Positions 3,993-29,511 of a stretch of DNA of 34,790 nucleotides are shown one piece after another. The notes beneath the pieces are model-generated. The model ran no database searches. It was not told the origin of the DNA and worked only from the letters and a program-made list of their open reading frames with translations. The stretch covers positions 1 through 34,790 of the forward strand of contig WJJG01000412.1 of NCBI GenBank assembly GCA_014729815.1. Direction: 5' to 3'. This DNA is from Candidatus Eiseniibacteriota bacterium (GTDB lineage: Bacteria; Eisenbacteria; RBG-16-71-46; CAIMUX01; WJJG01). The position numbers were made by a program, and so were the translations under genes. Within the stretch, counting starts at the first letter, position 1; each line of letters begins with the position of its first letter.

Positions 3993-4388
3993 ATGAGCGA
4001 ATACCACGAGCCGCTCGAGGCGCTCCCGGAAGGCGTCCGCGATGTTCACCGTGCCTTGCGCTCCCTGATCGAGGAGCTCGAAGCGGTGGACTGGTACCAT
4101 CAGCGCGCGGCCGCGACTGAGGACGCGGAACTGCAACGCATTGTCGAGCACAACCGTGATGAGGAGATCGAGCACGCCTGCATGGCCCTCGAATGGCTGC
4201 GGCGCAGAATGCCGGGCTGGGATGCGGAGCTACGAACCTATCTCTTCACCAGCGGCGACATCACCTCCGTCGAAGAGAGCGGCGGAGCCGGGGAGTCGGA
4301 TCCGCCGTCGGAACGGCAACAGGAGCCCGCGCGTCGATCCTCTGCCGGGGATCTCGGCCTGGGCAATCTGAGAGAGGAGGCGCGATGA
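3993..4388 (+). CDS. Encapsulated ferritin-like protein (EncFtn) cargo with C-terminal encapsulin-targeting peptide
   Basis: Core LIEELEAVDWYHQR...HNRDEEIEHACMALEWLRRRMP matches the EncFtn di-iron fold motif (E..H). The C-terminus [13 protein letters not shown] resembles family-1 cargo-loading peptides (D.GIGSL). AAGGAGAG lies upstream of ATG 3993. The stop TGA overlaps the shell-gene start (ATGATGA). Confidence 0.8.
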   Translation: MSEYHEPLEALPEGVRDVHRALRSLIEELEAVDWYHQRAAATEDAELQRIVEHNRDEEIEHACMALEWLRRRMPGWDAELRTYLFTSGDITSVEESGGAGESDPPSERQQEPARRSSAGDLGLGNLREEAR

Positions 4389-5185
4389 TGAATCTTCTGA
4401 AGCGAGCCCTGGCCCCCGTCTCGGACGCCGCCTGGGACGAGATCGACGAGGAGGCCCGCCGGGTCCTCGCGAGCAGCCTGACGGCGCGGCGCATCATGGA
4501 CGTCACGGGCCCCCACGGCCCCGCGTACGCCGCCGTCGGATTGGGCCGTATCACGACCTCCACGGAGGGGGCATCTGATCCTGTGGCGTACGGGATCCGT
4601 CGCGTGCTGCCGCTGATCGAGTTGCGGGCCAGCTTCGAGCTCGATCGCTGGGAGCTGGACAATGCCGAGCGCGGTGCCGCCGACATCGAGCTCGATCCAC
4701 TCACCGAGGCCGCACGGGAGCTCGCCCAGTTCGAAGAGCGTCTGGTCTATCACGGACTCCAGGAGGCCGGCATCGAGGGCCTTCGCGACGCTGCCGAGCA
4801 GGACCCGATTCCCCTCGGCACCGAGGGCGGCGACTATCCGAAGTCGATCGCCCGGGCGCTCGTATCGCTGCGCGAGGCGAGCATTGGTGGACCCTACGCA
4901 CTGGTCCTCGGATCGGAACCCTTTACCGCCCTCTCGGCCGCCTGCCAGGGCTGTCTTCCACGGCAGCAGATCGCACAGCTTCTCGAAGGGCCGGTGCTCC
5001 TGAGTCCGGTGATCGAAGGCGGATTCCTGCTCAGCACGCGTGGTGGGGACTTCGAGATCACGCTCGGGCAGGATGCCTCGATCGGCTGGCAGTCCCACGG
5101 GGAGGAGCGGATGAAGCTCTTCCTGATGGAGTCGCTGACCTTCCGCGTTCTCGAGCCGCGCGCCGTCGTCCCGCTCGAGGGCTAG
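4385..5185 (+). CDS. Family 1 encapsulin nanocompartment shell protein (HK97-fold, linocin M18-like)
   Basis: [21 protein letters not shown]..., [32 protein letters not shown] and [14 protein letters not shown] closely follow the conserved blocks of Thermotoga-type encapsulins. GAGAGGAGG lies 6 nt upstream. Track ORF 4193..5185 trimmed to ATG 4385. Confidence 0.85.
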
Positions 5186-11434: not shown

Positions 11435-12940
11435 ATGCACAAGCGACCCCGCGTCCTCGGTGGGACGGGACGGACTCCGCTCCACCGCGTCGGACGCATG
11501 CTGCTTCTGATCACCCTCGGCCTGGCCCTAACGGCGATTCCCGCCCGGGGACAGCCCGACCCCGCGTCAACGGACGAGATCAGCGACGCCACCCTCACAG
11601 CGGCGGTTCGCCAGCGACTGGCCAACGACTACGGCGTGTTGGCCGGAGAGATCGACGTCTCCACGACATCGGGCATCGTCACCCTGGCCGGTGCGGTGGA
11701 TCATATTCTGGCTCGCCAGCGAGCTGTCGAGCTCACCGGCACGCTGCGCGGTGTGCGGGGGGTGATCGACCGGTTGCGCGTCGAGCCGGTCTCCCGTACC
11801 GACGAGGAGATCCGCACTGACGTGGAAGTCGCCCTGCGGCTCAATCCTGCGGTCTCCTTCGACGATCTCGAGGTCGAGGTCCAGAGCGCGGTCGTTACGC
11901 TGCGTGGTGAGCTCGAATCGCTTGCGATGCAGCAGGCCGCCGCGCGGGCGGTCTACGGCGTGCGGGGCGTGCGCGACCTGATCGATCGGACCTCGCTCGA
12001 GGCGATCGCGCCGCGCAGCGATGCCGAGCTACGCGATGAGATCCAACAGCGCCTGCGTGCCGACGCCCGCGTGCGTGCCGATCGCATCACGGTCGCGGTT
12101 CGCGATCGCAACGTCACCCTGCGTGGTGTCGTCGGCTGCCCGGCCGAGCGGCAGGCTGCTGCCCGCGCCGCGGCTGTCCTGGGCGTGCGCCAGATCGATG
12201 CCGATTCACTGGTCGCGGACTGGGAGCGCTGCCAACTGCTGCGGGCCGATCTCCAGGAACGCATCGTCGAGCTCGGCGATCGAGAGATCGCCGAAGCGGT
12301 GCGGCTCGCTCTGGAGCTCGACCCACGAGTCGATCCAGTGGGCATCCAGGTCGAGGTCTCCGACCACGTCGCCACGCTCACCGGCAGCGTGGCGACGATG
12401 GGCGCCGCCGAGGCCGCCGAGGAGGACGCCCGGCACACCACCGGCGTTTGGTCGGTGCGCAGCCATCTGCTGGTGCGCCCCGAAAGCGTGCCTCCCGATG
12501 GCCGTCTGGAGGCCGAGATTCACGCGGCCCTGCAGCGCAATCCGTATGTCGCCGCCGACTCGATCAGCGTGGTGGTCAACAGCGGGCGCACCTATCTCTT
12601 CGGAGCCGTCGACAACGCCTTCACCGAAGCGGAGATTCTGCGCGTGGTCGGCGAAGTGCCCGGCGTGATCGTGGTTTCGAATAATCTGACGCTGGGCCGC
12701 GATGCCCGTCAGAAGTCGGATCGACAGCTCCGGCACGATGTGCGCAACGAGATCTGGTGGACCCCAATGGTCGATGCCGACGAGGTGATTGTCGAGGTGC
12801 GTGACGGTATCGTCACGCTGCTCGGGGATGTGGATTCGGCCACAGAGCGGCGCGAGGCGGCTGCGGCGACCCGGCGCGCGGGCGCCCGGGTAGTGATCAA
12901 TCGCCTGAAGATCAACGGCGAGATCGTGCTCCCGGGATAG
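11435..12940 (+). CDS. Secreted multi-BON-domain protein (paralog of 2075..3604), 501 aa
   Basis: Track ORF 10502..12940 trimmed to ATG 11435, which has AAGGAGG 7 nt upstream. N-terminal hydrophobic segment LLLITLGLALTAIPA. Five BON-like repeats. The C-terminal block DVRNEIWWTPMVDADEVIVEVRDGIVTLLGDVDS parallels DVESELWWSPYVNEEEIAVAVDDGFVTLTGTVDS of the other copy. Confidence 0.75.
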   Translation: MHKRPRVLGGTGRTPLHRVGRMLLLITLGLALTAIPARGQPDPASTDEISDATLTAAVRQRLANDYGVLAGEIDVSTTSGIVTLAGAVDHILARQRAVELTGTLRGVRGVIDRLRVEPVSRTDEEIRTDVEVALRLNPAVSFDDLEVEVQSAVVTLRGELESLAMQQAAARAVYGVRGVRDLIDRTSLEAIAPRSDAELRDEIQQRLRADARVRADRITVAVRDRNVTLRGVVGCPAERQAAARAAAVLGVRQIDADSLVADWERCQLLRADLQERIVELGDREIAEAVRLALELDPRVDPVGIQVEVSDHVATLTGSVATMGAAEAAEEDARHTTGVWSVRSHLLVRPESVPPDGRLEAEIHAALQRNPYVAADSISVVVNSGRTYLFGAVDNAFTEAEILRVVGEVPGVIVVSNNLTLGRDARQKSDRQLRHDVRNEIWWTPMVDADEVIVEVRDGIVTLLGDVDSATERREAAAATRRAGARVVINRLKINGEIVLPG

Positions 12941-13130: not shown

Positions 13131-13574
13131 CTACTGCACGGGAATCCTCTCGCGACTGGTTTGAGGCGACTTGGGCAGCTCGAGATGCAGTACGCCGTCA
13201 CGGAGCTGCGCCTTCGCTTCCTGTGCATCGACCGCCGCCGGGAGCACGACCTCGCGCTCGTAGTGATGGAAGAAGTGACGCTCCTCCTGTGGCGCGCGGC
13301 GATCATCGCGTTGCTGCGCCGCCCGCTCGGCCTCGATGCGCAGCAGCTCCCGATCGAGGGTGACGAGAACCTCCTCCTTACGGAACCCGGGGAGTTCCGC
13401 CTCGACGTAGACGGCTTCGTCATCCTCGTGGACGTCTACCGGATACGACTCCTCTCCCCGGCGCAGCCGATCCGCATCCCACCAGCGGTCGATCGGATGG
13501 CGGCTGCGCCTTCCCGGGGCCATCGGCATATCGTCCCAGTCGCGCATCCTGCGGCGACGACGGATGGGCAGCAT
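13131..13574 (-). CDS. Hsp20/alpha-crystallin family small heat-shock protein
   Basis: Alpha-crystallin domain blocks (VDVHEDDEAVYVEAELPGFRKEEV...VLHLELPK) with an Arg-rich N-terminus. AAGGGAGG lies upstream of ATG 13574. Confidence 0.8.
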   Translation of the reverse strand: MLPIRRRRRMRDWDDMPMAPGRRSRHPIDRWWDADRLRRGEESYPVDVHEDDEAVYVEAELPGFRKEEVLVTLDRELLRIEAERAAQQRDDRRAPQEERHFFHHYEREVVLPAAVDAQEAKAQLRDGVLHLELPKSPQTSRERIPVQ

Positions 13575-13596: not shown

Positions 13597-13647
13597 CAGC
13601 CGCGCGCACCAGCAGCGCGCGGCTGCTATTCCGCGTAGCGGAATAGC
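13597..13647 (-). promoter_or_regulatory. Two adjacent perfect hairpins at the baeRF-like/Hsp20 junction; possible attenuator, processing or stability element
   Basis: GCAGCCGCGCGC-accagca-GCGCGCGGCTGC at 13597-13627 (12-bp stem). GCTATTCCGC-gta-GCGGAATAGC at 13625-13647 (10-bp stem), which encodes the last 7 codons plus stop of the upstream gene. No U-tract; the Hsp20 SD begins about 10 nt after the stems. Confidence 0.4.
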
Positions 13648-14831
13648 GCGGCGGCCACCGCGTCCTGTGGCAGAGTCTCGGCGTCCTGCAGATGGACGCG
13701 TCCGCCCCCGTTGAGGACCCGTACGGCCGCCCAGTTGAGCAGTTCCTCATGACCGGCCTGCCTGTGAAGCCGCACCTCCCGCGGCGGTTCATTCGGCGTC
13801 AGCCTCGGCGCCCAGCGCCGCGCATCCGGGGCCACGAAGAGGGCCTCGATCCGGTGCGCGGTCGCCGCCGCAGCGATCTCCGTGAGCAGCGTCGAGGCGG
13901 CTCTGGTCCCGACGTGGCGTCGCAGCCGATCCAGATCGGCGCGCCGCTGCAGTTCGATCTCCGCCTCCACGTGCGGCCAGACGGCATCGCGCAATTCGTG
14001 GGGGGTCCTGCGGCGCGGGTCGGTCGACAGCTCCGCATCCAGCAGGTGCGCGTAGTGGTTAGCCTGCCGGTAGAGAGGCAGCAGGTATTCGGTGCCGGCC
14101 AGAACGAGAGGATCCTGTCCGTGCGCGTGTAGCCAAGGCGCCAGCACGTTGTCGAGCTGCTGGAAGAACTGAAGCAGATCCTTCTTCTGCAGGCTGTCGT
14201 CCACTCCTCCGCCGCCATGACCGTGGTAGATGGCCGCGCGCCTCTGACCCCTTTGGCTTTGGGGCGTACCGGTATGGAACTGCAGATGACGTTCATCCTC
14301 CGATCGCTGCGGTAGCTCCTCGATCGAATGCGGCAGATCCGGTACGTCAATCTTCTCAGCGGACAGACGCGAGGCGCGGATTACGCGGACGCCGGGCGGC
14401 TCTAGGGCCAGGATGTGAAGCCGTTCCGCCGCCGCTTCGGCGGCCGGTAGGAGCGGCAGGATCCGGAATCGCCGGTCGACAAAGACCTCCTCCGGCGCAT
14501 CCCCGGGAAAGTCCGCCACGTAGACGTCACCGCGCCGCGCGAAGATGCCTACCGCGCCACCCGTGCCATCGCTGCCTCGCCCGCTCACCAGATCGAGCCC
14601 GCGATGCGGCAGCTCCTGCACGGGCGAGAGGATCTCCTCGGCCCCGCTGACATCCACTTCGAATTCGAGCAGCCTGCGGGCTGCCGAACGCACGTGATTG
14701 GCGAAGCGGGTTCCCGCCGTCTGAGCGGCATCTGCGGTTCCGGTTGGCATATAGATCGATACACAGGCTTCGCCCTCATGCCGCAGGAGCTGCTTCCAGT
14801 TCCCCTCGCTGCCCAAGCTCAATCGTTGCAA
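13626..14831 (-). CDS. Hypothetical protein with eRF1/Pelota-like central domain (bacterial eRF1-like, baeRF-type); function unknown
   Basis: The central region (RLHILALEPPGVRVIRA ... TPQSQRGQRRAAIYHGHGGG ... LQFFQQLDNVLAPWL...PLVLAGTEYLLPLY) parallels the eRF1 M-domain layout. A Gln-containing loop sits where GGQ would be. Assignment is by eye only. Confidence 0.4.
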   Translation of the reverse strand: MQRLSLGSEGNWKQLLRHEGEACVSIYMPTGTADAAQTAGTRFANHVRSAARRLLEFEVDVSGAEEILSPVQELPHRGLDLVSGRGSDGTGGAVGIFARRGDVYVADFPGDAPEEVFVDRRFRILPLLPAAEAAAERLHILALEPPGVRVIRASRLSAEKIDVPDLPHSIEELPQRSEDERHLQFHTGTPQSQRGQRRAAIYHGHGGGGVDDSLQKKDLLQFFQQLDNVLAPWLHAHGQDPLVLAGTEYLLPLYRQANHYAHLLDAELSTDPRRRTPHELRDAVWPHVEAEIELQRRADLDRLRRHVGTRAASTLLTEIAAAATAHRIEALFVAPDARRWAPRLTPNEPPREVRLHRQAGHEELLNWAAVRVLNGGGRVHLQDAETLPQDAVAAALFRYAE

Positions 14832-15020
14832 GCTGTATTCTCCCCTTCTCCAGCGTTCTCAGATCTTGCGGGATCGACTGCCGGTGACACCCGTCCCTCA
14901 CCGGACCCGCTCCGGCCCTCAGATACAGCAACCAGATAGCGCGATTCGTGGGGGCGGGGAATCGGCAGTCAGCGGTTTTCGGATTGGCCGCTTGCCCCAT
15001 CATCGCCTGGGGGGGAACCC

Positions 15021-16808
15021 CTAGGACGCTTGTGCGGGCCATAAGAGGATGCAGCGGACGAGTGTGCCCGTGTCCTCTGCGCGCCGCACGCTCACCATCG
15101 CGCCGAGCAGACGTGCCCGATAGCGCATGTTGCGCAGCCCGATGCCGTCTGATACGACATCATCGTCCTCGGAGAATCCTACGCCATCGTCGCGGATCTC
15201 CAAAGCAAGACGATCATGGGTCACCTCGAGAGAGATCCCGATCCGCTCGGGCCGCGCATGGCGGACGGCATTGGTCACCGCTTCCTGCGCGATCCGGTAG
15301 AGGTGCTCGGCGGTCGCGGCCGGCAGAGGGTGGAGCTCTCCGGTGAGTTGGAAGGCGCAGCGCATGCCGAAGATCTCCTCGGTTCGCTCAGCGAGCGCTT
15401 TGAGTCCTGACGCCAATTCCCCATCCGGACCGTGGCCAATCGGCGCCAAGTGATGCGAAAGCCCGCGCGCCGTGTCGAGAGCCTCGCGACTCAGACGCAC
15501 GATCTCCTCGGCCTGCTTCCCCAGTCGCTCGTCGCGTTCGGCGGCCTCCGCGGCAAGGCCCTCCGACAGAAGGGCCAGCCCGCTCAACGTCTGCCCCAGG
15601 GAATCGTGGAGCTCCGCCGAAAGCCGTCGCCGCTCGCTTTCGGCGGCCTCGAGTACCGCGCGCTCCATCTGCCGCTGCTCGGTCAAATCCCTCACGAGCC
15701 GCAGCCGCGCCTCCGCGATGCCCGGCGGCGCAGAGAAGTGCGACGCGCGCACCTGCACCCACAGCAGCTCCCCGCTCCGCTTGCGCAGCGCGCAATCACA
15801 GGCTCGGGACAGTTCCGCCGCTCGCCAGTCGCTGCAGTCCGCGATCTCTGCCCACTGTGGATCGAAGAGCTGCCGCTCGGGCATCTCCAGGAGCTCCTCC
15901 ACGCTGTACCCGAGCAACTCCGCCATACGCCGATTGGCGAAGATCGTCGCTCCCCCGGCATCCACGATCCAGATCCCCTCGCTGGTCGTCTCGACGATCT
16001 CCCGAAATTGGGCTTCGCGTTTCGCCAGCGCCCGTTCGGTTGCCAGACGGCGCGTGACGTCCATCGAAACCGCCACCACGCGAGTCGATCCGGCCCGCGT
16101 CAACGGCGCCAGACTCATCAGGTGATAGCGCCCCGAGCGCGATCGCACCAGCGTGTCGACCGGGTTTCCCCGCCGCGCCTCGGCGATCTCCTCGCGCAAC
16201 GCGGCCCCGTCCGCGGCGAACTCCGTCAGCGATCGACCCCGAAGCGCCCGCGGTCGCAGCGTCTCATCCTCCAGGGAGCGTCCTCGCGCAACCAGCACCC
16301 GTCCCTGCTCGTCCAGGTACCAGAACGTGACCGCCAGGCGTCCCGCGGCCAGGCGCAGCAGCCTGCTCAGTCGGCGACTGCGGCGCCGCGCCGCCAAGAA
16401 GCCGGATAGATCGCGAAGCAGGAGGCAGACCATATCGGCTTGTGGCACGTCGATCGGCGCGCCGGTGAACTGGACGTATCTGCTCGCTGGTCCCCGCAGC
16501 CCCATTCGCCACCGCGCGGGGCGGCGCGCGGCATGCTCGAGGAGGGAGCCCAGACGCGACCGGCGCCCCCTCGCGACCAGTTCCCGCAGATCGCGCCCGC
16601 GTAGATCGGTCACGCGCCGTCCCAGCACCTCCTCGACCGCAGGATTGGCGTCGACGATTTGGCCGTCCGTGCGCACGATCAGCGCGGGTTCCGCCAATCC
16701 CGCGAAGAAGTCCCGGCGGAGTTTGTGCGCCCCCTGGCTGGTGTGGGACCCTTCGCGCTCCCGACTCCGGTCCCCGGCCTCGCCGTGCTGAGAATCTCGT
16801 TCTGGCAT
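15021..16808 (-). CDS. Cytoplasmic sensor histidine kinase, multi-PAS, HisKA_3 type (partner of NarL/LuxR regulators)
   Basis: No TM segments. PAS-like repeats (e.g. TSEGIWIVDAGGATIFANRRMAELLGYS). H-box ELHDSLGQTLSGL. C-terminal HATPase (IRDDGVGF...GIGLRNMRYRARLLG). Start ATG 16808 is chosen within track ORF 15021..16883 but has a weak SD, so the start is uncertain. Confidence 0.75.
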   Translation of the reverse strand: MPERDSQHGEAGDRSREREGSHTSQGAHKLRRDFFAGLAEPALIVRTDGQIVDANPAVEEVLGRRVTDLRGRDLRELVARGRRSRLGSLLEHAARRPARWRMGLRGPASRYVQFTGAPIDVPQADMVCLLLRDLSGFLAARRRSRRLSRLLRLAAGRLAVTFWYLDEQGRVLVARGRSLEDETLRPRALRGRSLTEFAADGAALREEIAEARRGNPVDTLVRSRSGRYHLMSLAPLTRAGSTRVVAVSMDVTRRLATERALAKREAQFREIVETTSEGIWIVDAGGATIFANRRMAELLGYSVEELLEMPERQLFDPQWAEIADCSDWRAAELSRACDCALRKRSGELLWVQVRASHFSAPPGIAEARLRLVRDLTEQRQMERAVLEAAESERRRLSAELHDSLGQTLSGLALLSEGLAAEAAERDERLGKQAEEIVRLSREALDTARGLSHHLAPIGHGPDGELASGLKALAERTEEIFGMRCAFQLTGELHPLPAATAEHLYRIAQEAVTNAVRHARPERIGISLEVTHDRLALEIRDDGVGFSEDDDVVSDGIGLRNMRYRARLLGAMVSVRRAEDTGTLVRCILLWPAQAS

Positions 16809-16883
16809 CGGTCCTTCCCGTGACGCAGGCGTCTGGCAATGTCGCTGCAGCCGCATTCTGGGATCCAATCCCCATACGCGCAA

Positions 16884-16916
16884 GCCCGCTTCCTGCCGGT
16901 ACGGCAGCAGCGGGCC
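16884..16916 (-). terminator. Hairpin downstream of dodecin (GCCCGC..CTGCCG-gta-CGGCAG..GCGGGC); candidate terminator separating SOR-dodecin from the kinase gene
   Basis: Nested inverted repeat with one internal bulge, 47 nt after the dodecin stop. On the minus strand it is followed by TTGCGCGTATGGGGATTGG. Confidence 0.3.
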
Positions 16917-16962
16917 GGCTCAGAGCGCCTCTGTGGGAGCCGCCAACGCCTCGTGGACTCCC

Positions 16963-17166
16963 CTACGAGGAGACCACAAAGGTCACCTTCATCGTGACCC
17001 GGTAGGCCGTGATCTTCCCTTCCTGGATCTGGACATCTTGGTCCTTGATCCATGCACTCTGCACGTTGCTCAGGGTCTCCCCGGTTCTGGCGATGCCCTC
17101 GCGGATGGCATCCTCGAACCCCTTCTCGGATTGCGCCGTCACTTCGATGACCTTGGCAATCGACAC
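16963..17166 (-). CDS. Dodecin (small flavin-binding/storage protein)
   Basis: 67 aa. MSIAKVIEVTAQSEKGFEDAIREGIARTGETLSNVQSAWIKDQ matches dodecin family conservation. GTG start with AAGGAGG 7 nt upstream. Confidence 0.7.
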   Translation of the reverse strand: MSIAKVIEVTAQSEKGFEDAIREGIARTGETLSNVQSAWIKDQDVQIQEGKITAYRVTMKVTFVVSS

Positions 17167-17227
17167 TCTTGGCCTCCTTTCGCACTTCGGCAGCGCTGTG
17201 ATCCTGCACGCCGCCCCGACACGGCAT

Positions 17228-17626
17228 CTACTTGTTGACGGTGATCTTCTTCGTGTTCTCCCACAGGCCGTGGATGTTGCAGTAGCTGGCTGCGAGCAGC
17301 GTTCCGCTCTGCTCGGCCTTCATCTGCACCACCGCCTCGTGGTGGGCATACACACCACTGGAGTCCGGTCCATCCGGCGCCGCCCCATGCGCGGCGAACT
17401 CGGCGCGGGCGACCTGGATCGGGAACTTCGTCCCGTCGGGATGGAAGTGCACGTCCACCCAACGGATGTGATGGGCGGTCTCGTTGGGATGCGCCACCTC
17501 CTTCCCCAAGGTGATGCGCACGTCGAAGATCTCGCCCGCCTTGACTTCCTCGGGCGCATCGATCACCGGCACATGCTTCTCCGACTTCCAGTCGGCACTC
17601 TGAAACCGCTCTCCAAACTCGCTCAT
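17228..17626 (-). CDS. sor: Superoxide reductase, 1Fe (neelaredoxin/desulfoferrodoxin centre-II type)
   Basis: EKHVPV motif; His ligands (H..H in IRWVDVHFH); C-terminal CNIHGLWE with Cys and His ligands. Track ORF trimmed to ATG 17626, which has AGAAGGAGG 5 nt upstream. 132 aa. Confidence 0.8.
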   Translation of the reverse strand: MSEFGERFQSADWKSEKHVPVIDAPEEVKAGEIFDVRITLGKEVAHPNETAHHIRWVDVHFHPDGTKFPIQVARAEFAAHGAAPDGPDSSGVYAHHEAVVQMKAEQSGTLLAASYCNIHGLWENTKKITVNK

Positions 17627-17901
17627 GGGATCCTCCTTCTCTACACGACCGGCGTCATGCGCACACGACTCGCTTGCGACTCGTCCCGGTGCGCGAGCCC
17701 GTCGCGCGGACGACACGCACTCTACGACCGCGGCGAAGAGAGAAACATCCGGATGCGGATGATCTGCGCCTGGGGCGTGCCACTAGACAAAGGCAGGGAC
17801 AGGAGGATGTGTGAGGCCGATCAATCGGCGCGGTGGGCGAAGCGCATGGCGTGCAGAGTACTGTCGCAAGGCCCGCATGCCCCGGCGAAGTGGGGGGCGC
17901 G

Positions 17902-18549
17902 CTAGCGCGACTCCATCCAACCCACGGCGTGACGAATCAGTTCCGTGCTGTTCTTCAGCCCGAACTTCAGCTTGATGTTCTCGCGATACGTCTCGATGGT
18001 CTTCATGCTCAGATTGAGCGCTTGCGCGATGCTCCGCGTCGTCTCGCCGCGGCCGATCAGCTCGAAGACCTCCAGTTCGCGATCCGAAAGGGCTTCGATC
18101 GGGGAGGAGCCTACCTCGGCCTTGGTGTTCACCATACGATTCAGCACGCGTTCCGACATCCGTTCGCTGAGATAGACCTTGCCGTCCAGAACACGCCGAA
18201 TCGCTTCGACCACCCGGGCCGAGCTCTCCGACTTGGCGATGTAGCCGCGCGCGCCGGCGTGAAGGCAGCGCTCGGCGTAGAGCGATTCGTCGTGCATCGA
18301 GCAGACCAGGATCGGCAGCTCCTCATCCAATGCGCGGATCTGCTTGACCAGTTCCAAGCCGCCTACGTCCGGCAGTGAGATATCGACGACGACCAGGTCG
18401 GGTCGTTCCTTGTCGATCGCCTCGAGCGCCGATCCCGCATCCGGCAGCGCCCAGGCGACCTCCAGGTCCATTTCGCGGTTGATCATCTGAGAGAGGCCTT
18501 GCCGCACGATCGGATGATCGTCGACCAGCATGATCCTTGCTTTGGCCAT
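17902..18549 (-). CDS. Two-component response regulator, NarL/FixJ (LuxR-type HTH) family
   Basis: Receiver domain MAKARIMLVDDHPIVRQGL...DLVVVDISLPD. C-terminal LuxR HTH (ELEVFELIGRGETTRSIAQALNLSMKTIETYR). Trimmed from track ORF 17902..18906. Confidence 0.85.
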   Translation of the reverse strand: MAKARIMLVDDHPIVRQGLSQMINREMDLEVAWALPDAGSALEAIDKERPDLVVVDISLPDVGGLELVKQIRALDEELPILVCSMHDESLYAERCLHAGARGYIAKSESSARVVEAIRRVLDGKVYLSERMSERVLNRMVNTKAEVGSSPIEALSDRELEVFELIGRGETTRSIAQALNLSMKTIETYRENIKLKFGLKNSTELIRHAVGWMESR

Positions 18550-18750: not shown

Positions 18751-18770
18751 GTTGTTTTCCCCAGGATATG
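18751..18770. promoter_or_regulatory. AT-rich motif TGTTTTCCCCAGGATATGAT in the RR/S2P divergent intergenic region; a near-copy occurs at 32285-32303
   Basis: The conserved core TGTTTTCC(CC)AGGATAT is unusually AT-rich for this ~70% GC sequence. Both copies sit in divergent promoter regions. Confidence 0.3.
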
Positions 18771-18956
18771 ATGGGTGCCTCCCCGTTTGCCGAGAAGCAG
18801 CTCGGCCGGATGGGCGCGGCCTCCGCGCCGCTCTAAAGTGATCCGCGGCTGCCCGGCGCCCGGAGCGGAGTCGCACGGGACAGGCGCATGGAGCGTAGGC
18901 GCACATGCTCGGTGCCTGGGGCGGTGACGGTTCCGAGCGCCCGTAGGGAGGCTGTC

Positions 18957-20120
18957 ATGTTTCAGAAGCGGATCGAACTGCTGCAGCTCTTCGGCTTTCG
19001 TGTCTACGTCGATGTCAGTTGGCTGATCATCGCTGCACTGGTGACCTGGTCTCTGGCTTCCGGCGTGTTCCCGCAGAGCTATCCCGAGCTGCGTCCGCTC
19101 ACCTACTGGATCATGGGCCTGATCGGGGCGCTGATGCTGTTCCTTTCGATCGTCGTGCACGAGTTCAGTCATTCCCTCGTGGCGCGCAGGTCCGGGCTAC
19201 CCATGAAGAGCATCACGCTCTTCCTCTTCGGGGGTGTCGCAGAGATGGAAGCGCAGCCCAAGAGCCCGGGAGCGGAGTTCTCCATGGCCGTCGCCGGCCC
19301 CATCGCCAGCATCCTCCTCGGCGGCCTCTTCCTCGCGCTGAGCGCCTGGGGACTCGCCCAATCCTGGCCGACTCCCCTGCGCGGCATCCTGAGCTACCTG
19401 GGAGTGATCAATCTCGTCTTGGCCGGCTTCAATCTGCTGCCGGCCTTCCCGCTCGATGGAGGGCGCATCCTGCGTTCGCTGCTTTGGCATTGGAAGCACG
19501 ATCTCTTGGCGGCCACGCAGATCGCCGCGCGCGTGGGTCGCGTCTTCGGCTGGCTGTTGGTCGCCATCGGCGCCCTGAACATCTTCCGCGGCGGACTGGT
19601 GGGAGGCCTATGGCTGATCCTGATCGGCCTCTTCCTGCGAAGCATCGCCCAGCGCGCCTATCAGGAGATGCGCCTGCGCTTTGCCCTGCGTGACGAAGCG
19701 CTGCAGCGCTTCATCGACGACGACGCTGCCGCGCTCTCGCCCGATCTACCCGTCGACGAATTCGTCGAGGAGTATCTCTACCGCCGCCGCGGCCGAACCT
19801 TTGCGATCGTCGCGGACGGCAAGCTGAAGGGATGCGTGGGGCCCGCGCAGGTGCGCCGCATCCCCAAACGCAACTGGGCGCGCAAGACGATCGGGCAGCT
19901 CTCGCGCCGCTGTCCGCCGAAGCGGCGCATCGGCGTGGATGAGAGCGCCGCCGACGCCTTCGACAAGATGCGTCGCCAGCGGCTGCGCAGTCTCTTCGTC
20001 GTCGATGGCGAGCGGCTTCTCGGTACCGTGCGACTCGAATCGCTCTTGCGCTTCGTCAGCGCCAAGCTCGACCTCGAATCCCCCGCCGGGGACGAGGGTT
20101 CCCGCTCACCCGGCCCGTAG
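18957..20120 (+). CDS. Site-2 protease family (M50) zinc metalloprotease with C-terminal CBS-domain pair
   Basis: HEFSHSL (HExxH) in a TM helix; LDGG motif (AFPLDGGRIL); C-terminal CBS-like repeats. GGGAGG lies 6 nt upstream of ATG 18957. Confidence 0.8.
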   Translation: MFQKRIELLQLFGFRVYVDVSWLIIAALVTWSLASGVFPQSYPELRPLTYWIMGLIGALMLFLSIVVHEFSHSLVARRSGLPMKSITLFLFGGVAEMEAQPKSPGAEFSMAVAGPIASILLGGLFLALSAWGLAQSWPTPLRGILSYLGVINLVLAGFNLLPAFPLDGGRILRSLLWHWKHDLLAATQIAARVGRVFGWLLVAIGALNIFRGGLVGGLWLILIGLFLRSIAQRAYQEMRLRFALRDEALQRFIDDDAAALSPDLPVDEFVEEYLYRRRGRTFAIVADGKLKGCVGPAQVRRIPKRNWARKTIGQLSRRCPPKRRIGVDESAADAFDKMRRQRLRSLFVVDGERLLGTVRLESLLRFVSAKLDLESPAGDEGSRSPGP

Positions 20121-21845: not shown

Positions 21846-22088
21846 ATGATCGGCATCATCCGCAAGGGCAACCAGATCCTCAGAGTCGGCGTCGACCAGC
21901 AGCGCTGCGATTCGAGCGGCGTCTGCGTCGTGGAGCTTCCTCAGGTCTTCCGATTCCAGGAAGGGAGCAAGAAGGCCACCGTGAGCATGGCCGAAATCCC
22001 CGCCCGACTCGAGCAACAGTGCTGGGAGGTCGCACGCAAGTGTCCGACTCGCGCAATCTCGATCACCTGCTGCGAGAACGACTCGTGA
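21846..22088 (+). CDS. Small ferredoxin (single-cluster, CxxGxC...CP type)
   Basis: 80 aa. VDQQRCDSSGVCV ... ARKCPTRAI resembles 7-8 kDa [3Fe-4S]/[4Fe-4S] ferredoxins. GGGAGGAGAG lies upstream. Divergent from the disulfide oxidoreductase. Confidence 0.55.
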   Translation: MIGIIRKGNQILRVGVDQQRCDSSGVCVVELPQVFRFQEGSKKATVSMAEIPARLEQQCWEVARKCPTRAISITCCENDS

Positions 22089-24482: not shown

Positions 24483-24544
24483 GCAGTCCCCCCCGGGTAG
24501 TGGACAGACCCGCGCGACACGATCCCGCGACGCGCCCTCAGCGA

Positions 24545-24561
24545 GCGATCCTAGGGATCGC
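24545..24561. promoter_or_regulatory. Inverted repeat GCGATCC-tag-GGATCGC (7-3-7) about 65 bp upstream of the TrkA-C membrane gene, in the region divergent from ligD-PE
   Basis: Perfect 7-bp arms. Flanked by the direct repeat CGCGAC x2. Confidence 0.3.
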
Positions 24562-24919
24562 CGGGCTGCGTCTCATCCCGGTGTCGCCGGGGCGGCCTCT
24601 GGGGTCAAGCAGGATATCGGTCCGGGTGAATGTCCTACGTCCGAAGCACAGCCAGCGCAAGCGTCGCCTTGGCCGTGCATTGCGCACTCGGTGTCCACAC
24701 CGTCCCATCGGCGGCGCCAGGCCGCGTGCTTGACGAAGAGCCGGGCGATCTCCACTGTCCGGGGCAAGACAGGCGCGCGGGGCCCAGCCCGCCGGCGGCG
24801 TGAATCCCGAACGCGGGTCGAAGCCCGCCCGCTTGGCGACACCGGTCCGCGTGACGAGATGTGCGCGAAGTGGTGCCGCGCCCGGGAGGCGCACTCCGCA
24901 TGCACTGAAGGAGACGACC

Positions 24920-25549
24920 ATGCCCGGCGACCGCCTGAAGGAATACCGCCGCAAGCGCGACTTTCGCCGCACCCCCGAACCGGGCAAGCGCGGCAAGCGT
25001 CGCGGCAAAGGTCCTTTCTTCGTCATTCAGGAACATGACGCGCGCCAGCGTCACTTCGACTTCCGCTTGCAGGTCGGCGATGCGCTCAAGTCGTGGGCGG
25101 TGCCCAAGGGACCCTCGACCGATCCGCGCGAGAAGCGTCTCGCCGTGCAGGTCGAGGATCATCCGCTCGACTATGCCGACTTCGAGGGCGTGATCCCCGA
25201 AGGCGAGTACGGCGCGGGCAGCGTGATCGTTTGGGATCACGGCCCCTATCGCAACGAGAACCGCGACCGAGACGGAAAACAGATCTCGCTCGAGCAAGCG
25301 CTGCGTCGCGGGCGGATCGAGCTATGGCTCGATGGCCAGAAGCTGCAGGGCGGGTACGCGCTGGTTCGCACGCGCATGGGCGGAAAGAAGAAGAACTGGC
25401 TGCTGATCAAGATGAAGGACGAGAAGGCGGATGCGCGTCGCAGTCCGGTCAGCTCCCAGCCGAAGAGCGTGCTGAGCGATCGCACCGTCAAGCAGGTCGC
25501 GCGTGATGCGCGCCGCCAAACGGACGGCGAGGACTCCGGTGAAGATTGA
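24920..25549 (+). CDS. LigD-type 3'-phosphoesterase (PE) domain protein, stand-alone
   Basis: GKGPFFVIQEHDARQRHFDFRL ... SWAVPKGPS ... DHGPY are the conserved PE-domain blocks. AAGGAG lies 6 nt upstream of ATG 24920. Trimmed from track ORF 24800..25549. Confidence 0.75.
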   Translation: MPGDRLKEYRRKRDFRRTPEPGKRGKRRGKGPFFVIQEHDARQRHFDFRLQVGDALKSWAVPKGPSTDPREKRLAVQVEDHPLDYADFEGVIPEGEYGAGSVIVWDHGPYRNENRDRDGKQISLEQALRRGRIELWLDGQKLQGGYALVRTRMGGKKKNWLLIKMKDEKADARRSPVSSQPKSVLSDRTVKQVARDARRQTDGEDSGED

Positions 25550-26552
25550 TCTGCACGAGGAACTCCCGGCTGCCGAGCGCGAGCTCCTGCGCCAACGCCG
25601 CCAACCGCGCTGGACGTCGCCGATGCTGGCCGTGTTGACGGACAAGCGCTTTGCCGATGCCGAATGGAGCTACGAGCGCAAGCTCGATGGCGTCCGCTGC
25701 CTCGTGTTCCGTCGCGGCAAACAGGTGCGTCTCGTTTCGCGCAACCGCAAGTCGATGAATCGCACCTATCCGGAGCTCGTCGAGGAGATCGGTCGCCAGC
25801 CGATCGATCACTTCATCGCCGATGGTGAGATCGTGGCCTTCGCAGGCAACCGCACCAGCTTCCAGCGCCTCCAGCAGCGCATCGGCATCCGCGATCCCCA
25901 AGAGGCGCGCCGCCGTGGCGTGGCCGTCTATCTCTATCTCTTCGATCTGCTGCACCTCGGCGACTACGACACGACCCGCCTTCCGCAACACCGCCGCAAG
26001 GCGCTGCTGCGCAAGGCGCTGCGCTACTCGAACCGCTTGCGCTACACGCCGCATAGGCGTCACACGGGGCTCGACTACTATCGCGAGAGCTGCCGGAAGG
26101 GACGGGAAGGGGTGATCGTCAAACGGCGCGATGCACCCTATCGGCACGGCCGCTCGACCGATTGGTTGAAGTTCAAGTGCGTCAACCAGCAGGAATTCGT
26201 CATCGGCGGCTACACCGAACCGGAGGGGCAACGGATCGGGTTCGGAGCGCTGCATGTCGGGTTCTATGCGGACGGCAAGCTACGCTACGCGGGCAAGGTG
26301 GGCACCGGATACGACCGCCAGACGCTGCGCGATCTTTCGCGCCGACTGGGACGCATCGAGCGCCACAGTTCGCCCTTTGCGGATGGCGACGAGATCGCCG
26401 CCGGCCAGACGCATTGGGTGTCCCCCAAACTCGTCGCCGAGATCGGCTTCACCGAATGGACCGCGGAACATCGCCTGCGCCACCCTCGGTTCCTGGGGCT
26501 GCGCGAGGACAAGGCGCCGCGGAAGGTCCGGCGGGAGACGCCGGGGGGCTAG
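25539..26552 (+). CDS. ATP-dependent DNA ligase, LigD ligase-domain type, stand-alone
   Basis: PMLAVLT...WSYERKLDGVRCL (KxDG adenylation motif), GEIVA..., EGVIVKRRDAPY, and an OB-fold C-terminus. The start is either GTG 25539 (GAGGA 6 nt upstream; overlaps the PE stop by 11 nt) or ATG 25503. Confidence 0.7.
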   Translation: MKIDLHEELPAAERELLRQRRQPRWTSPMLAVLTDKRFADAEWSYERKLDGVRCLVFRRGKQVRLVSRNRKSMNRTYPELVEEIGRQPIDHFIADGEIVAFAGNRTSFQRLQQRIGIRDPQEARRRGVAVYLYLFDLLHLGDYDTTRLPQHRRKALLRKALRYSNRLRYTPHRRHTGLDYYRESCRKGREGVIVKRRDAPYRHGRSTDWLKFKCVNQQEFVIGGYTEPEGQRIGFGALHVGFYADGKLRYAGKVGTGYDRQTLRDLSRRLGRIERHSSPFADGDEIAAGQTHWVSPKLVAEIGFTEWTAEHRLRHPRFLGLREDKAPRKVRRETPGG

Positions 26553-26554
26553 GC

Positions 26555-27466
26555 ATGGGTCGCCGGAGATTCGGCCGCCACACGGTGGATACCTCGCGTG
26601 AGGAGAAGACGCTCTTCCCCGAGGCGGACCTCACCAAGGGTGACCTGATCGACTATTTCACGCGTGTCTTCGGGAGCATGAAGCCCCACCTCGCCGATCG
26701 CCCCTTGAGCCTCCGCCGCTATCCGGATGGGATCCGCAGCGAGGGCTTCTTCCAGAAGCAGGTGCCCGACTACTTTCCGAGCTGGATCCGTTCGACACGG
26801 GTGCGGAAAGAGGGGGGGCACCAGGACTTGGTGATCGCCGATCGTCAGGCCACCCTGGCCTACCTCGCCAACCAGGCCTGCATCACCCTCCATGGCTGGC
26901 TCAGCCGCGCCGACCGGCCCGATCATCCCGACCAACTCGTCATCGATCTGGACCCTGCGGGTCGCGACTTCGGCGCCGTGCGCCAGGCGGCACTGCGCTG
27001 CCGAACGCTCTTCGAGGAGCTCGCGGTCCCCAGCTTCGTCAAGTCGAGCGGCTCGCGGGGACTGCACGTCACGGTGCCCCTCGATCGCCGGGCGACGTTC
27101 GACGAAGCGCGGTCCTTCGCGCAGCGCTTCGCCGGCGTGCTCGCCGCCCGGTTTCCCAAGGAACTGACCACCGAGCAGCGCAAGCAGAAACGCGCCGGGC
27201 GCATCTACCTCGATGTGGGACGCAACGCCTACGGGCAGACCGTCGTCGTGCCCTACTCGACGCGCGCGCGGCCCGGCGCCCCGGTGGCCGTGCCCCTGCG
27301 GTGGGACGAGGTCGCCAGCCGCCGCCTCTCGCCCCGGCGCTACACCGTGCGCAACCTCTTCCGCCGCCTGGCGCAGATCGAGGACCCCTGGCAGGGGTTC
27401 GCGCGTTCCCGCATCTTGATCCGGGCCGCCCAGCGGCGATTGGAGCGGCTGGAGGATTCGACGTAG
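26555..27466 (+). CDS. LigD polymerase/primase (archaeo-eukaryotic primase-like) domain protein, stand-alone
   Basis: The ATG lies 3 nt after the ligase stop. Conserved blocks: VIDLDP, SGSRGLHV, YLD..RN. 303 aa. The track ORF 26162..27466 N-terminal extension overlaps the ligase gene and is rejected. Confidence 0.75.
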   Translation: MGRRRFGRHTVDTSREEKTLFPEADLTKGDLIDYFTRVFGSMKPHLADRPLSLRRYPDGIRSEGFFQKQVPDYFPSWIRSTRVRKEGGHQDLVIADRQATLAYLANQACITLHGWLSRADRPDHPDQLVIDLDPAGRDFGAVRQAALRCRTLFEELAVPSFVKSSGSRGLHVTVPLDRRATFDEARSFAQRFAGVLAARFPKELTTEQRKQKRAGRIYLDVGRNAYGQTVVVPYSTRARPGAPVAVPLRWDEVASRRLSPRRYTVRNLFRRLAQIEDPWQGFARSRILIRAAQRRLERLEDST

Positions 27467-27472
27467 GCGCCT

Positions 27473-27493
27473 CCATCGGGACTCGCCCGATGG
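27473..27493. terminator. Perfect hairpin CCATCGGG-actcg-CCCGATGG, 7 nt after the ligD-pol stop
   Basis: 8-bp GC-rich stem with a 5-nt loop. No U-tract. Confidence 0.3.
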
Positions 27494-27632
27494 ACGAACC
27501 GGCGCTGCACCCCTTTCCCGCTCGGTGCGCTTGCGCGAGGGTCACCCATGTGCTTCTTGCGCAAAGCGGAAACACGGCCTCGCAAACGGAGGTACCAGAC
27601 CCGCGGGATTCCATCTGGACCTGGAGGAGGAG

Positions 27633-27923
27633 ATGACGCAAGATAGAGATGCGTATCGGAAGAAGCGTGAGGCAGAGCTCGAGCAGCTCGAGGCCGAATT
27701 GCAGCGGCTGCAGGGCAAAGCCAAGGAGGCGGAGGCCGAGGCACGCATCGGCTTCCAGCAACAAGCCTACGAACTGCAAGAGAAGCGCGATCAGGTGCGC
27801 GAGAGGCTGCGCGAGCTGAGCGAGGCCGGTACGGATGCCTGGGACAAGACCCGGGAGGGCCTCGAGGAGGCGCTGACGGATCTCCGTACGGCGCTCGAAG
27901 TTGCGTCCACTCGCTTCAAGTAG
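27633..27923 (+). CDS. Small coiled-coil hypothetical protein (~96 aa), highly charged
   Basis: Trimmed to ATG 27633 (GGAGGAGGAG adjacent). Heptad-like EAELEQLEAELQRLQGKAKEAEAEARI sequence. No assignable family. Confidence 0.4.
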   Translation: MTQDRDAYRKKREAELEQLEAELQRLQGKAKEAEAEARIGFQQQAYELQEKRDQVRERLRELSEAGTDAWDKTREGLEEALTDLRTALEVASTRFK

Positions 27924-27984
27924 GATCTTCAGGGGCCCCTCCCGGTCGCCGCCCGATGCCGGCGTAGATGGGGAGGCGGATGTC

Positions 27985-29511
27985 ATGCGATTGATCGTTG
28001 TCTCCAATCGATTGCCGATCCGCTTGGTCCGTGAGGACCGCGGCTGGACATCGCAGCCGGCGAGCGGGGGCCTGGTGACCGCGCTTTCGCCGGTGCTGCG
28101 CAACCGCGGCGGGATCTGGATCGGCTGGCCCGGGGTCGCCGGCGATTTCGACGAAGGCGAGATCCTGGGGCCTGCCAGCCGCGAGGCGGGACACCGGCTG
28201 CATCCGGTGCGTCTCAGTGAGGTCGAGCTCAAGAGCTTCTACCACGGCTTCACGAATCAGATCATCTGGCCGCTCTTCCACGATCTGTTCACGCGCTGCA
28301 ACTTCAGCTCCGACTTCTGGCGCACCTATCTGAAGATCAACGCACGCTTCGCCGACGCCATCATCCAGCACCATCAGCCCGACGACTACGTCTGGGTCCA
28401 GGACTACCATCTGATGCAGGTCGGGCATCTCTTGCGCCGCAGAGGCCACGGGCGCTATCGCACCGGCTTCTTCCTGCACATCCCCTTCCCCCCCCCGGAC
28501 GTCTTCGTCAAGCTGCCCTGGCGCTCACAGATCCTGCGCGGTCTGCTCGACTACGATTTGGTCGGCTTCCAGACGATTCGCGACCGTCGCAACTTCGTGC
28601 ATTGCCTGCGCCACCTGGTGCGGGAGGCCAAGGTGCAGGGCCGCGGACCCGTGATCTCGGTGCGCTATGGAGACCGCATGCTGCGGCTGGGCTGCTTCCC
28701 GATCGGGATCGGCTTCGACGAGTTCTCCGAGGTGGCCAAGCGGCCCGAGACGGCCGAACGCGTGGCTGCCCTGCGCGAGGCGCACGGCACGAGCCAGCTG
28801 ATGCTCAGCGTCGACCGCCTCGACTATACGAAGGGTATCCCCGAACGGCTGGAGGGGTTCCGCCGCGCGCTGGCCCGCTACCCCTCGCTCCACGAGAAGA
28901 TCACGCTGATTCAGCAGGTCGTTCCCAGCCGCGACTCGGTGCCCGAATACCAGCGGCTACAGACTGACATCGAGACGCTGATCGCCAAGATCAACGGTCA
29001 GTTCACGCGTCCGGGCTGGATCCCGGTGCACTACCTGTATCGCTCGATGCCGCGCGAGGAGCTCGTCGCCCACTACCGCGCGGCCGACATCGGGCTGATC
29101 ACGCCGCTCAAGGACGGCATGAACTTGGTCGCCAAGGAGTTCTGCGCCTGCGACGTGGATCGCTCCGGGGCCCTGATCCTCAGTGAGTTCGCCGGAGCGG
29201 CCATTCAGCTCCGGACCGGGGCGCTGCTCGTCAATCCCTACGACTACGAAGGTGTGGCCGAGGCGATCCGGCGCGCCTTCCTGATGCCCCCCGAGGAGCG
29301 ACGCATGCGCATGCACAAGCTGCGCACCAGCGTGCGCAAGACCGATATCGCCTGGTGGGCCGATTCGTTCATGGAGGCCGCCTTCGCCCGCACCCTCCAC
29401 GACTTTCCCCACGACGAGCGGGATCTCACCGAAGATTTTCCCCGACAGCATCAGCATGCCGCGGCCGGCCGCCGCGACCCGTCCGGCAGGCGCGCGGGCG
29501 CGGGCGCCTAG
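27985..29511 (+). CDS. otsA: Alpha,alpha-trehalose-phosphate synthase (GT20), no fused phosphatase domain
   Basis: RLIVVSNRLP, GGLVTAL, WVQDYHLM, HIPFP and FFLHIPFPPPDVF, LVNPYD are canonical OtsA blocks. GGGAGG lies 8 nt upstream of ATG 27985. 508 aa. Confidence 0.85.
   Translation: MRLIVVSNRLPIRLVREDRGWTSQPASGGLVTALSPVLRNRGGIWIGWPGVAGDFDEGEILGPASREAGHRLHPVRLSEVELKSFYHGFTNQIIWPLFHDLFTRCNFSSDFWRTYLKINARFADAIIQHHQPDDYVWVQDYHLMQVGHLLRRRGHGRYRTGFFLHIPFPPPDVFVKLPWRSQILRGLLDYDLVGFQTIRDRRNFVHCLRHLVREAKVQGRGPVISVRYGDRMLRLGCFPIGIGFDEFSEVAKRPETAERVAALREAHGTSQLMLSVDRLDYTKGIPERLEGFRRALARYPSLHEKITLIQQVVPSRDSVPEYQRLQTDIETLIAKINGQFTRPGWIPVHYLYRSMPREELVAHYRAADIGLITPLKDGMNLVAKEFCACDVDRSGALILSEFAGAAIQLRTGALLVNPYDYEGVAEAIRRAFLMPPEERRMRMHKLRTSVRKTDIAWWADSFMEAAFARTLHDFPHDERDLTEDFPRQHQHAAAGRRDPSGRRAGAGA

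Follow-up and report, generated by a model that had tools for sequence, protein, structure and literature searches.

The 34,790-bp contig WJJG01000412.1 of a Candidatus Eisenbacteria metagenome-assembled genome (MAG; GC ~67%), which we analyzed over its whole length and refer to as the window, carries four minus-strand genes in series, encoding a NarL/FixJ-family response regulator (RR), a superoxide reductase (SOR), a dodecin-like protein and a soluble PAS-domain histidine kinase (HK). Comparison with related loci indicates that the conserved unit is made up of other genes: a gene for an M50-type metalloprotease with a CBS domain (M50-CBS), divergent from the RR gene, followed downstream of the RR by genes for a Balon-like protein and for the small heat-shock protein Hsp20. 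The SOR, dodecin and HK genes thus appear better described as a block placed between the conserved regulator and its conserved downstream operon. That this block sits in the regulatory core of a DosR-like dormancy or stress island of this uncultured Eisenbacteria genome is a reading to which, judging from sequence comparison, we give an even chance. The features on which the analysis turns are the following.

18957..20120 (+): M50 site-2-type metalloprotease with a CBS domain, by Pfam; divergent from the RR, conserved
17902..18549 (-): NarL/FixJ-family RR (REC and GerE helix-turn-helix), 215 aa; Pfam Response_reg 1.1e-28, GerE 4.2e-17
17627..17901 (-): RR-SOR spacer, 275 nt
17228..17626 (-): class II (1Fe, neelaredoxin-type) SOR, 132 aa; Pfam Desulfoferrodox PF01880 1.6e-33, residues 11-124
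16963..17166 (-): dodecin-fold protein, 67 aa, GTG start; Pfam PF07311 2.8e-23, 82 bits (cutoff 22.5)
16884..16916 (-): nested hairpin, strong, 3′ of the dodecin gene, no U-tract
15021..16808 (-): soluble PAS HisKA_3 kinase; Pfam PAS_4/PAS/PAS_9, HisKA_3 1e-13, HATPase_c 1e-11
15012..15021 (unstranded): candidate operator GGGGAACCCC (on the minus strand TAG-GGGTTCCCC-CCCAGG), the only exact GGGG-W2-4-CCCC in the window
13626..14831 (-): baeRF (families 7/3) aeRF1-like protein, putatively of the Balon-type ribosome hibernation factor family, Pfam 1e-32; conserved as 3′ neighbour of the RR
13131..13574 (-): Hsp20 small heat-shock protein, by Pfam; conserved after the Balon-like gene
Spacer lengths: RR-SOR 275 nt, SOR-dodecin 61 nt, dodecin-HK 154 nt, M50-RR (divergent) 407 nt

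The conserved unit and the block within it

The co-directional series RR-SOR-dodecin-HK is a fact of this contig, and the four open reading frames (ORFs) lie at exactly the coordinates and on the strand that the initial annotation of the window had given them. Database entries identical (100%) to the SOR, HK and RR proteins carry the Candidatus Eisenbacteria label. That annotation took the series for a self-contained redox module, and described it as a two-component system (TCS) split by SOR and dodecin. The gene order was searched for in 85 SOR loci (the 80 closest, one genome per species, and five looked-up loci; 967 kb), in the 80 closest dodecin loci (425 kb) and in eight independent loci of RR relatives, and it was found in none of them; the idea of a self-contained module did not pass this check. 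No SOR was present in any of the 80 closest dodecin loci, and a dodecin was encoded within 8 kb of SOR in one of the 85 SOR loci (L057, 3 kb away), where it is Rv0379-like and belongs to a different subfamily. No publication in the literature collection that was searched connects dodecin to SOR.

The genes flanking the block are those that recur. Another Eisenbacteria MAG (L166) carries an SDR gene, a homologue of the unknown 141-aa protein encoded in the window, and an M50-CBS gene, which is divergent from an RR gene (64% identity of the product to that of the window) followed by baeRF. The same M50-CBS arrangement is found in L169-171, where the RR (65%) is followed after a 280-nt gap by baeRF (35%) and Hsp20 (45%). 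The M50-CBS proteins in this divergent position are 61% (L170), 51% (L166) and 50% (L176) identical to that of the window. There is no gene between the RR and the Balon-like gene in the two closest RR orthologue loci (64-65%), and the window flanks match those of L166 and L169-171 in order and orientation, with SOR-dodecin-HK lying between them. Since the flanks in the window are the flanks of orthologues in which RR and baeRF are directly adjacent, SOR-dodecin-HK (17626-15021) is a 3.1 kb lineage-specific block, and the conserved unit, as far as synteny tells, is M50-CBS divergent from RR, then the Balon-like gene, then Hsp20. The description of a split TCS did not hold either, as the nearest orthologous RRs have no adjacent kinase and continue directly into baeRF and Hsp20. 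No direct repeats or mobile-element scars were found flanking the block. Two independent relatives without the block favour its gain here over its loss elsewhere.

The wider set of RR loci suggests which members of the series travel with the regulator. L176 encodes DJ-1, BON, SOR (60%), Hsp20 and M50-CBS divergent from the RR, and then a Fer4_15 ferredoxin and GH65; GH65 and a trehalose phosphatase adjoin the RR orthologue there. In L172 a GAPDH gene is divergent from the RR gene, which converges on an encapsulin-EncFtn pair. Because the L172 and L176 islands have many genes in common with the window, and L176 includes SOR in a different position, SOR seems to be a recurrent yet movable member of the islands around this RR family. 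Orphan RRs are found in L166, L167, L169-171, L172 and L176. In L174 (RR 60% identical) and L177 the RR stands behind a canonical PAS-HisKA_3 kinase; the L174 kinase is 30% identical to the window HK over the C-terminal 345 residues. By these comparisons the kinase is usually not adjacent to the RR, and the dodecin-like gene lies outside the conserved set.

The proteins of the block and the regulator

All four gene identities hold at the family level, and the redox or oxidative-stress theme assigned to the locus was upheld. By sequence the SOR is a typical enzyme of class II (1Fe). A single-domain protein without the N-terminal desulforedoxin domain, it passes NCBIfam TIGR00332 with 104 bits (cutoff 61.9) as against 41 bits with the 2Fe dfx_rbo model (cutoff 147), and aligns to the 1Fe-SOR of A. 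fulgidus (Archaeoglobus; 4bff) at 8e-44. The ligand motifs EKHVPV and CNIHGLW, claimed earlier, and HPNETAHHIRW match 4bff column for column (four His and one Cys). The closest SOR relatives are just 60-66% identical and the named ones include none from Eisenbacteria besides the contig's own protein; they come from lineages annotated as groups of anaerobe type (Omnitrophota, Aminicenantes, Desulfobacterales, Planctomycetota and others), which agrees with the association of SOR with anaerobes made earlier. No rubredoxin gene was found in the window. Genes near that of the SOR encode a Fer4_15 ferredoxin (21846-22088) and an FAD disulfide reductase, and small Fer4_15 ferredoxins recur near this class II SOR clade (L003:1297-1895, L004:8640-8828 and L176:7731-7931, in addition to the window gene). 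These ferredoxins could be candidate electron donors of the SOR.

The dodecin-like protein belongs to the fold family, but the flavin-buffering role given to it found no support. With the flavin dodecins (H. salinarum, T. thermophilus and M. tuberculosis Rv1498A) and with 3onr it shares the fold family PF07311, the length and the KV.F C-terminal strand, and PDB dodecins were matched by the subfamily profile at 1e-11 to 1e-6. It falls below the NCBIfam equivalog cutoffs, however, scoring 46.2 bits with DodecBact (cutoff 75) and 37.4 bits with dodecin_Halo (cutoff 100). In flavin dodecins the Gln of H[WF]QV contacts the flavin; this position aligns to Arg56 of the window protein, within YRV, so that the Tyr-Arg at the Gln position is common to the window dodecin and to 3onr/Rv0379 (YRI), the Rv0379-type protein that is named calcium dodecin in the literature. 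Characterized dodecins hold two flavins between symmetry-related tryptophans that sandwich the isoalloxazine rings (PMC7414021). The binding site is formed at the interface of subunits. The stacking Trp (LDWFE/LRWFE of 6ri3, 9bwn, 2vxa and 3oqt) aligns to Ser37, in a stretch that is free of gaps in both the single-sequence and the profile alignment, and the Trp of the window protein, Trp39, aligns two residues past the canonical position.

A single scan confirmed 299 relatives of this protein in metagenomes, and the best 80 were analyzed (loci L086-L165). The subfamily signature reads [GS]-A-W39 ... Y-R56-V: among the best 80, W39 is present in 80/80 and R56 in 73/80 (six Lys and one Gln), all have [GSAE]-[AV]-W39, and nearly all have Y/F-R56. 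Residue 37 is Gly in most relatives. These comparisons place the dodecin in a tight, abundant environmental (soil metagenome) subfamily without characterized members, one that scores below the NCBIfam dodecin cutoffs. Given the invariant Trp39 on the same stretch, an aromatic ligand is possible, and the ligand of the Trp39/Arg56 subfamily, which recurs in such islands, may be something other than flavin. Some relatives adjoin BON, DJ-1, Hsp20, M50-CBS or NarL-type RR genes, and a stress role for the subfamily is for this reason likely. The case calls for caution in transferring the annotation of a flavin buffer to a large environmental subfamily that is without the canonical binding residues at the aligned positions.

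The RR has the residues of a phosphorylatable receiver, which by their position in the translation are the acidic pocket D10/D11, the phospho-acceptor D56, S84 and K105. Its first 140 residues align to 3cz5, and its full-length PDB matches include EvgA, VraR, DevR/DosR (3c3w, 8.6e-24) and NarL. Relatives at 59-65% identity are found in similar stress islands.

The HK, whose start NCBI places at 16856, 16 codons further upstream, was confirmed as a cytoplasmic multi-PAS kinase: its N-terminus is hydrophilic and its AlphaFold2 (AF2) model (mean pLDDT 77) has no membrane segment. The domains are PAS1 (38-133), PAS2 (158-250), PAS3 (275-374), the helical hairpin of HisKA_3 for dimerization and histidine phosphotransfer (DHp; H401) and HATPase_c. 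The kinase boxes read LHDSLGQ (H401), EAVTNAVRHA, DDGVGF and GIGLRNM, and H401, N513, D540, G542 and G544 are invariant or nearly so. The catalytic domain is most similar to those of VraS, DosT, DevS and DesK. Among 1.84 billion cluster representatives no relative exceeds 41% identity, the value of the best partial match; over the full length the closest reaches 34%. A flavin or heme cofactor, which had been suggested for the PAS domains, could not be assigned by sequence and PDB searches or by AF2 and Foldseek; the structural neighbours found by Foldseek are generic multi-PAS sensors (NifL, LOV-HK, PpsR, tandem-PAS FixL with a target TM of 0.70, and MmoS), and the LOV motif NCRFLQ was not seen in the PAS domains by sequence inspection. 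In the AF2 model Cys325 of PAS3 lies in a low-confidence segment that replaces the F-alpha helix, and Cys337 and Cys339 lie on the next strand. The Cys residues of PAS3 recall Fe-S or thiol-switch PAS kinases, and the window pair resembles NreB-NreC of Staphylococcus, in which a cytoplasmic PAS-HisKA_3 kinase with a Cys-rich PAS is paired with a NarL-type regulator. NreB, however, has one PAS with four Cys that hold a [4Fe-4S] cluster, and the targets of NreBC are nitrate-respiration genes; PAS3 of the window HK, with three Cys (325, 337 and 339), is one ligand short.

Spacers, a candidate operator and the surrounding island

Each of the four genes has its own Shine-Dalgarno (SD) sequence, as had been noted, of the GGAGG type before SOR and dodecin and weaker before RR and HK. 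The RR-SOR spacer contains a terminator-like hairpin, CATCCGCATCCGGATG, with a U-rich tail, TTTCTCTCTT (17761-17746 on the minus strand, tail to ~17736). Its stem is of 6 bp, and as one consensus match where 1.8 are expected in shuffles it is alone not significant. The same spacer holds a ACGAGTCGCAAGCGAGTCGT repeat at 17684-17665, 39-58 nt upstream of the SOR start, and gave no Rfam match. The nested hairpin at 16884-16916 folds as originally described, with an 8+6 bp stem and without a U-tract, and could be a partial terminator or a 3′-end stabiliser; the structure of the dodecin-HK intergenic region as a whole is not unusual (z = -1.39). Searches for RNA families, among them riboswitches (for instance an FMN element close to the dodecin gene), gave no match at the gathering score or at E <= 1. 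A sigma-70 consensus scan found no promoter in the block or elsewhere in the region, although this consensus may not be the type used in this phylum. The sequence CAGGATAT occurs upstream of three plus-strand genes and may be -10-like. Exact and one-mismatch palindromes and k-mers common to the intergenic regions of the window were discarded as GC-rich noise.

Inspection of aligned spacers, followed by a regular-expression scan, brought out the pattern GGGG-W2-4-CCCC as a candidate operator. The site in the window (15012-15021) directly adjoins the stop codon of HK, 181-190 nt ahead of the baeRF start; the palindrome GGGGTTCCCC, within 14990-15030, is the candidate RR site. Other copies lie in the RR-baeRF spacer (L170:1987), upstream of HK-RR (L174:5679), and upstream of Hsp20 and in the M50-RR spacer (L176:5324 and 6785, respectively). 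The extended sites approach CTCGGGGTT(T)CCCCGAG, and an extended palindrome consensus, CTCGGGGTTTCCCCGAG, recurs at four independent loci, in spacers beside RR, aeRF1-like, Hsp20 and M50 genes. In all, ~5.8 kb of RR-neighbour intergenic DNA from the four loci contains five exact sites, compared with a background density of 1.56 per 100 kb, measured over 514 kb from unrelated loci of high GC. One-mismatch copies are found in the window in the DJ-1/BON and reductase/ferredoxin spacers, both between divergent genes, and upstream of the SOR in L176. The statistics of a shared operator are suggestive only. Best-match motif scans of the orthologous M50-RR and RR-baeRF spacers gave nothing beyond shuffles, and MAFFT alignments of these spacers showed no extended conservation. 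Another candidate, CCCCAGGNNATGATGGG, has two exact intergenic copies in the window, one upstream of the aeRF1-like gene (14996-15012, minus strand) and one between M50 and RR (18759-18775, plus strand), and was dropped; matches of 15/17 between spacers numbered six in the real sequences and 1-23 in shuffles.

Nearly all genes of the contig fit a stress, dormancy or desiccation theme, and they include genes for a GH65 phosphorylase, GAPDH, a P-type ATPase, DJ-1/PfpI, the FAD disulfide reductase, a PRC-barrel protein and an ABC-F protein. An encapsulin-associated ferritin-like protein (TIGR04535, 151 bits, above the cutoff) and then a Linocin_M18 encapsulin are encoded at 3993-5185(+). This pair is a predicted operon for an iron-sequestering nanocompartment, and its counterpart adjoins the RR orthologue in L172; the encapsulin ORF is listed as 4193-5185, its true start being probably later than the first start codon. 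Two proteins have six BON domains each and are OsmY-like (2075-3778(-) and 11516-12940(+)), the second with a long, probably non-coding, upstream ORF extension (to 10502). The functions of LigD are divided among three consecutive genes at 24800-27466(+), for a 3′-phosphoesterase, an ATP-dependent ligase and a primase-polymerase. No Ku gene was recognized among the scanned ORFs. The split LigD genes look like a repair set of the non-homologous end joining type within a dormancy island. A near-perfect palindrome, AGCGATCCTAGGGATCGCC, lies at 24544-24562 in the spacer between the divergent TrkA_C and LigD genes, and a second one, TCCATCGGGACTCGCCCGATGGA, at 27472-27494 just 3′ of the primase-polymerase gene, where it may form the stem of a terminator that has no U-tract. 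Trehalose metabolism genes (OtsA, TreT, DUF5752 and the GH65 phosphorylase) are clustered at 27901-31738 and 68-862, and upstream of OtsA there is an unannotated Glu/Ala/Lys/Arg-rich ORF (27634-27900(+)), coiled-coil-like by eye.

Regulatory readings and related systems

If the block does belong to the regulatory core of the island, the HK would be the cognate sensor of the RR; it would respond to an intracellular redox or O2-linked cue through a PAS domain and phosphorylate Asp56. The phosphorylated RR would then bind GGGG-W(2-3)-CCCC upstream of the Balon-like/Hsp20 operon, and maybe weaker sites in the island, inducing hibernation and protection genes. SOR and the dodecin-like gene would form a short transcription unit between the two hairpins, expressed by read-through or from an uncharacterized promoter, and superoxide would be removed under the same conditions. 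Control of SOR and the dodecin-like gene by the RR is plausible, though the region upstream of SOR holds no operator copy.

Several points weigh against this reading. The operator pattern is post hoc, and when the three discovery sites are left out two further matches remain, at roughly p = 0.004-0.02. GGGG-W-CCCC is absent, even with one mismatch allowed, from the M50-RR, RR-SOR and dodecin-HK spacers of the window; if the motif is real, its absence from the latter two would mean that it stayed with the hibernation operon and that the inserted genes came without it. Unbiased motif searches of the window and of the orthologous spacers gave nothing above shuffles. The match of baeRF to the Balon model NF052287 (62 bits) is far below the curated cutoff of 330. 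The block may reflect either gain here or loss elsewhere. The RR is an orphan in most of the related loci, so its usual kinase would lie at some other site in the genome, and it need not be partnered by the local HK. The host organism is, in addition, uncultured.

We consider it somewhat unlikely that the genes are chance neighbours, with SOR and dodecin forming an independent bicistronic unit that has its own promoter and answers to another regulator or a sigma factor, while the TCS controls only the hibernation and Hsp20 genes or distant targets, and the sandwich has no regulatory meaning. The hairpin with a U-rich tail in the 275-nt spacer after the RR and the strong hairpin after dodecin would fit such a unit, as would the missing operator copy upstream of SOR and a gene order that is conserved nowhere. 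In other genomes SOR is found among rubrerythrin, AhpC, ferritin and Rrf2 genes, or with Sod_Cu and ferredoxin genes, and NarL-type RRs are about as dense near SOR (9 in 967 kb, 0.93 per 100 kb) as near dodecins (3 in 425 kb, 0.71 per 100 kb), which rules out a general enrichment of NarL-type TCSs near SOR. On the other side, SOR recurs in the L176 island of the same RR family, with a one-mismatch motif upstream, and in two Kiritimatiellia MAGs (L084, 2170-8396; L078, 1159-8290) the gene of a class II SOR directly follows, in the same direction, genes for a NarL-type RR and a multi-PAS HisKA_3 kinase. These two loci, which also carry an extra receiver, are an independent case of a TCS beside SOR; they differ from the window in their order (RR, then HK, then SOR), in their kinases, which are membrane-bound (dCache-HAMP) or hybrid, and in having no dodecin, Balon-like gene or Hsp20.

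Doubt may also be confined to the kinase, which could have come with SOR and dodecin as a cassette or could signal elsewhere, the RR keeping a distal kinase. This possibility overlaps with that of chance neighbours, and we regard it as distinctly unlikely. It is favoured by the orphan RRs of the five loci or locus groups named above and by the difference in relatedness, as HK has no orthologue above 41% and RR has many at 59-65%, from which different evolutionary histories of the two would follow. Yet HisKA_3 kinases pair with NarL-type regulators, so that the HK matches the class of the RR; the 34.8 kb contig encodes no other RR; and the 60% identical RR of L174 does adjoin a PAS-HisKA_3 kinase with similarity to the HK. 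Co-transcription of all four genes from the 407-nt M50-RR promoter region, with the hairpins as attenuators and the effectors autoregulated together with the TCS, we hold to be very unlikely. Co-directionality and the separate SD sequences are compatible with one operon, both hairpins fall short of a canonical strong intrinsic terminator (the first with a stem of 6 bp, the second lacking a U-tract), and no sigma-70-like promoter was found inside the block, as none was found anywhere in the region. Gaps of 275 and 154 nt, however, are larger than is usual within an operon; a T-rich tail like the one behind the first hairpin stands out at a genomic GC of 67%; and in relatives the RR is monocistronic or part of an RR-baeRF unit.

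The closest parallel to the island as a whole is DosS/DosT-DosR (DevSR) of M. tuberculosis, which likewise combines a NarL-type regulator with a soluble HisKA_3 kinase. The catalytic domain of the window HK matches DosT (3zxq, 2e-11) and DevS (3zxo), and the match of the RR to DevR was given above. Members of the DosR regulon include Hsp20 (HspX), a CBS protein (Hrp1), a ferredoxin, a P-type ATPase and trehalose enzymes; the island has counterparts of each, and its aeRF1-like protein parallels the Balon homologue Rv2629. The linkage of a NarL-type regulator, Hsp20, an aeRF1-like factor and a CBS protein is seen by synteny in the window, L166, L169-171 and L176. The window system is nevertheless no strict member of the DosRS family: its sensor has three PAS domains and no GAF-heme, the candidate operator is not a DosR box, and the phylum differs. 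SOR and dodecin are not known as members of the DosR regulon. A TCS clustered with antioxidant effectors is also known from Fusobacterium nucleatum, where ModRS lies within the msrAB2-ccdA-eTrx cluster in a host without classical aerobic defences (PMC12288474). The effectors there are Msr and thioredoxin and not SOR, the gene order is different, and F. nucleatum has no SOR. The specific arrangement in the window is new but idiosyncratic.

According to Helena-Bueno et al. (2024; PMC10901736), homologues of Balon typically belong to stress operons and often adjoin Hsp20, and hypoxia activates Rv2629, the homologue of M. tuberculosis. In the window, by comparison, a conserved gene for a NarL-type regulator and a candidate operator lie ahead of the pair; excerpts of that paper list no regulator among the Balon gene neighbours. 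A wider proposal, which we think rather unlikely to be correct, is that Eisenbacteria and neighbouring uncultured lineages have a DosR-like hibernation regulon outside Actinobacteria, in which NarL-type regulators bind GGGG-W(2-3)-CCCC and induce a Balon-type factor, Hsp20 and M50-CBS, and which here would have captured a triple-PAS kinase, SOR and a non-canonical dodecin.

What is known of SOR, PAS kinases and NarL-type regulators themselves is unchanged by these findings. Most of their value comes from two things, the association of the RR with Balon and Hsp20 and the subfamily of non-canonical dodecins, and little from a split TCS. The locus shows how a stress island can be assembled, with antioxidant genes and a sensor coming to separate a regulator from the operon it targets; this matters for the reading of apparently split TCSs in MAGs. 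If the RR controls the Balon-like/Hsp20 operon, this would be a first handle on the control of ribosome hibernation by the recently described Balon family in uncultured soil and sediment phyla, and the DosR paradigm would extend beyond actinobacteria. If the wider proposal is true, exposure to oxygen or superoxide would be coupled directly to translational shutdown.

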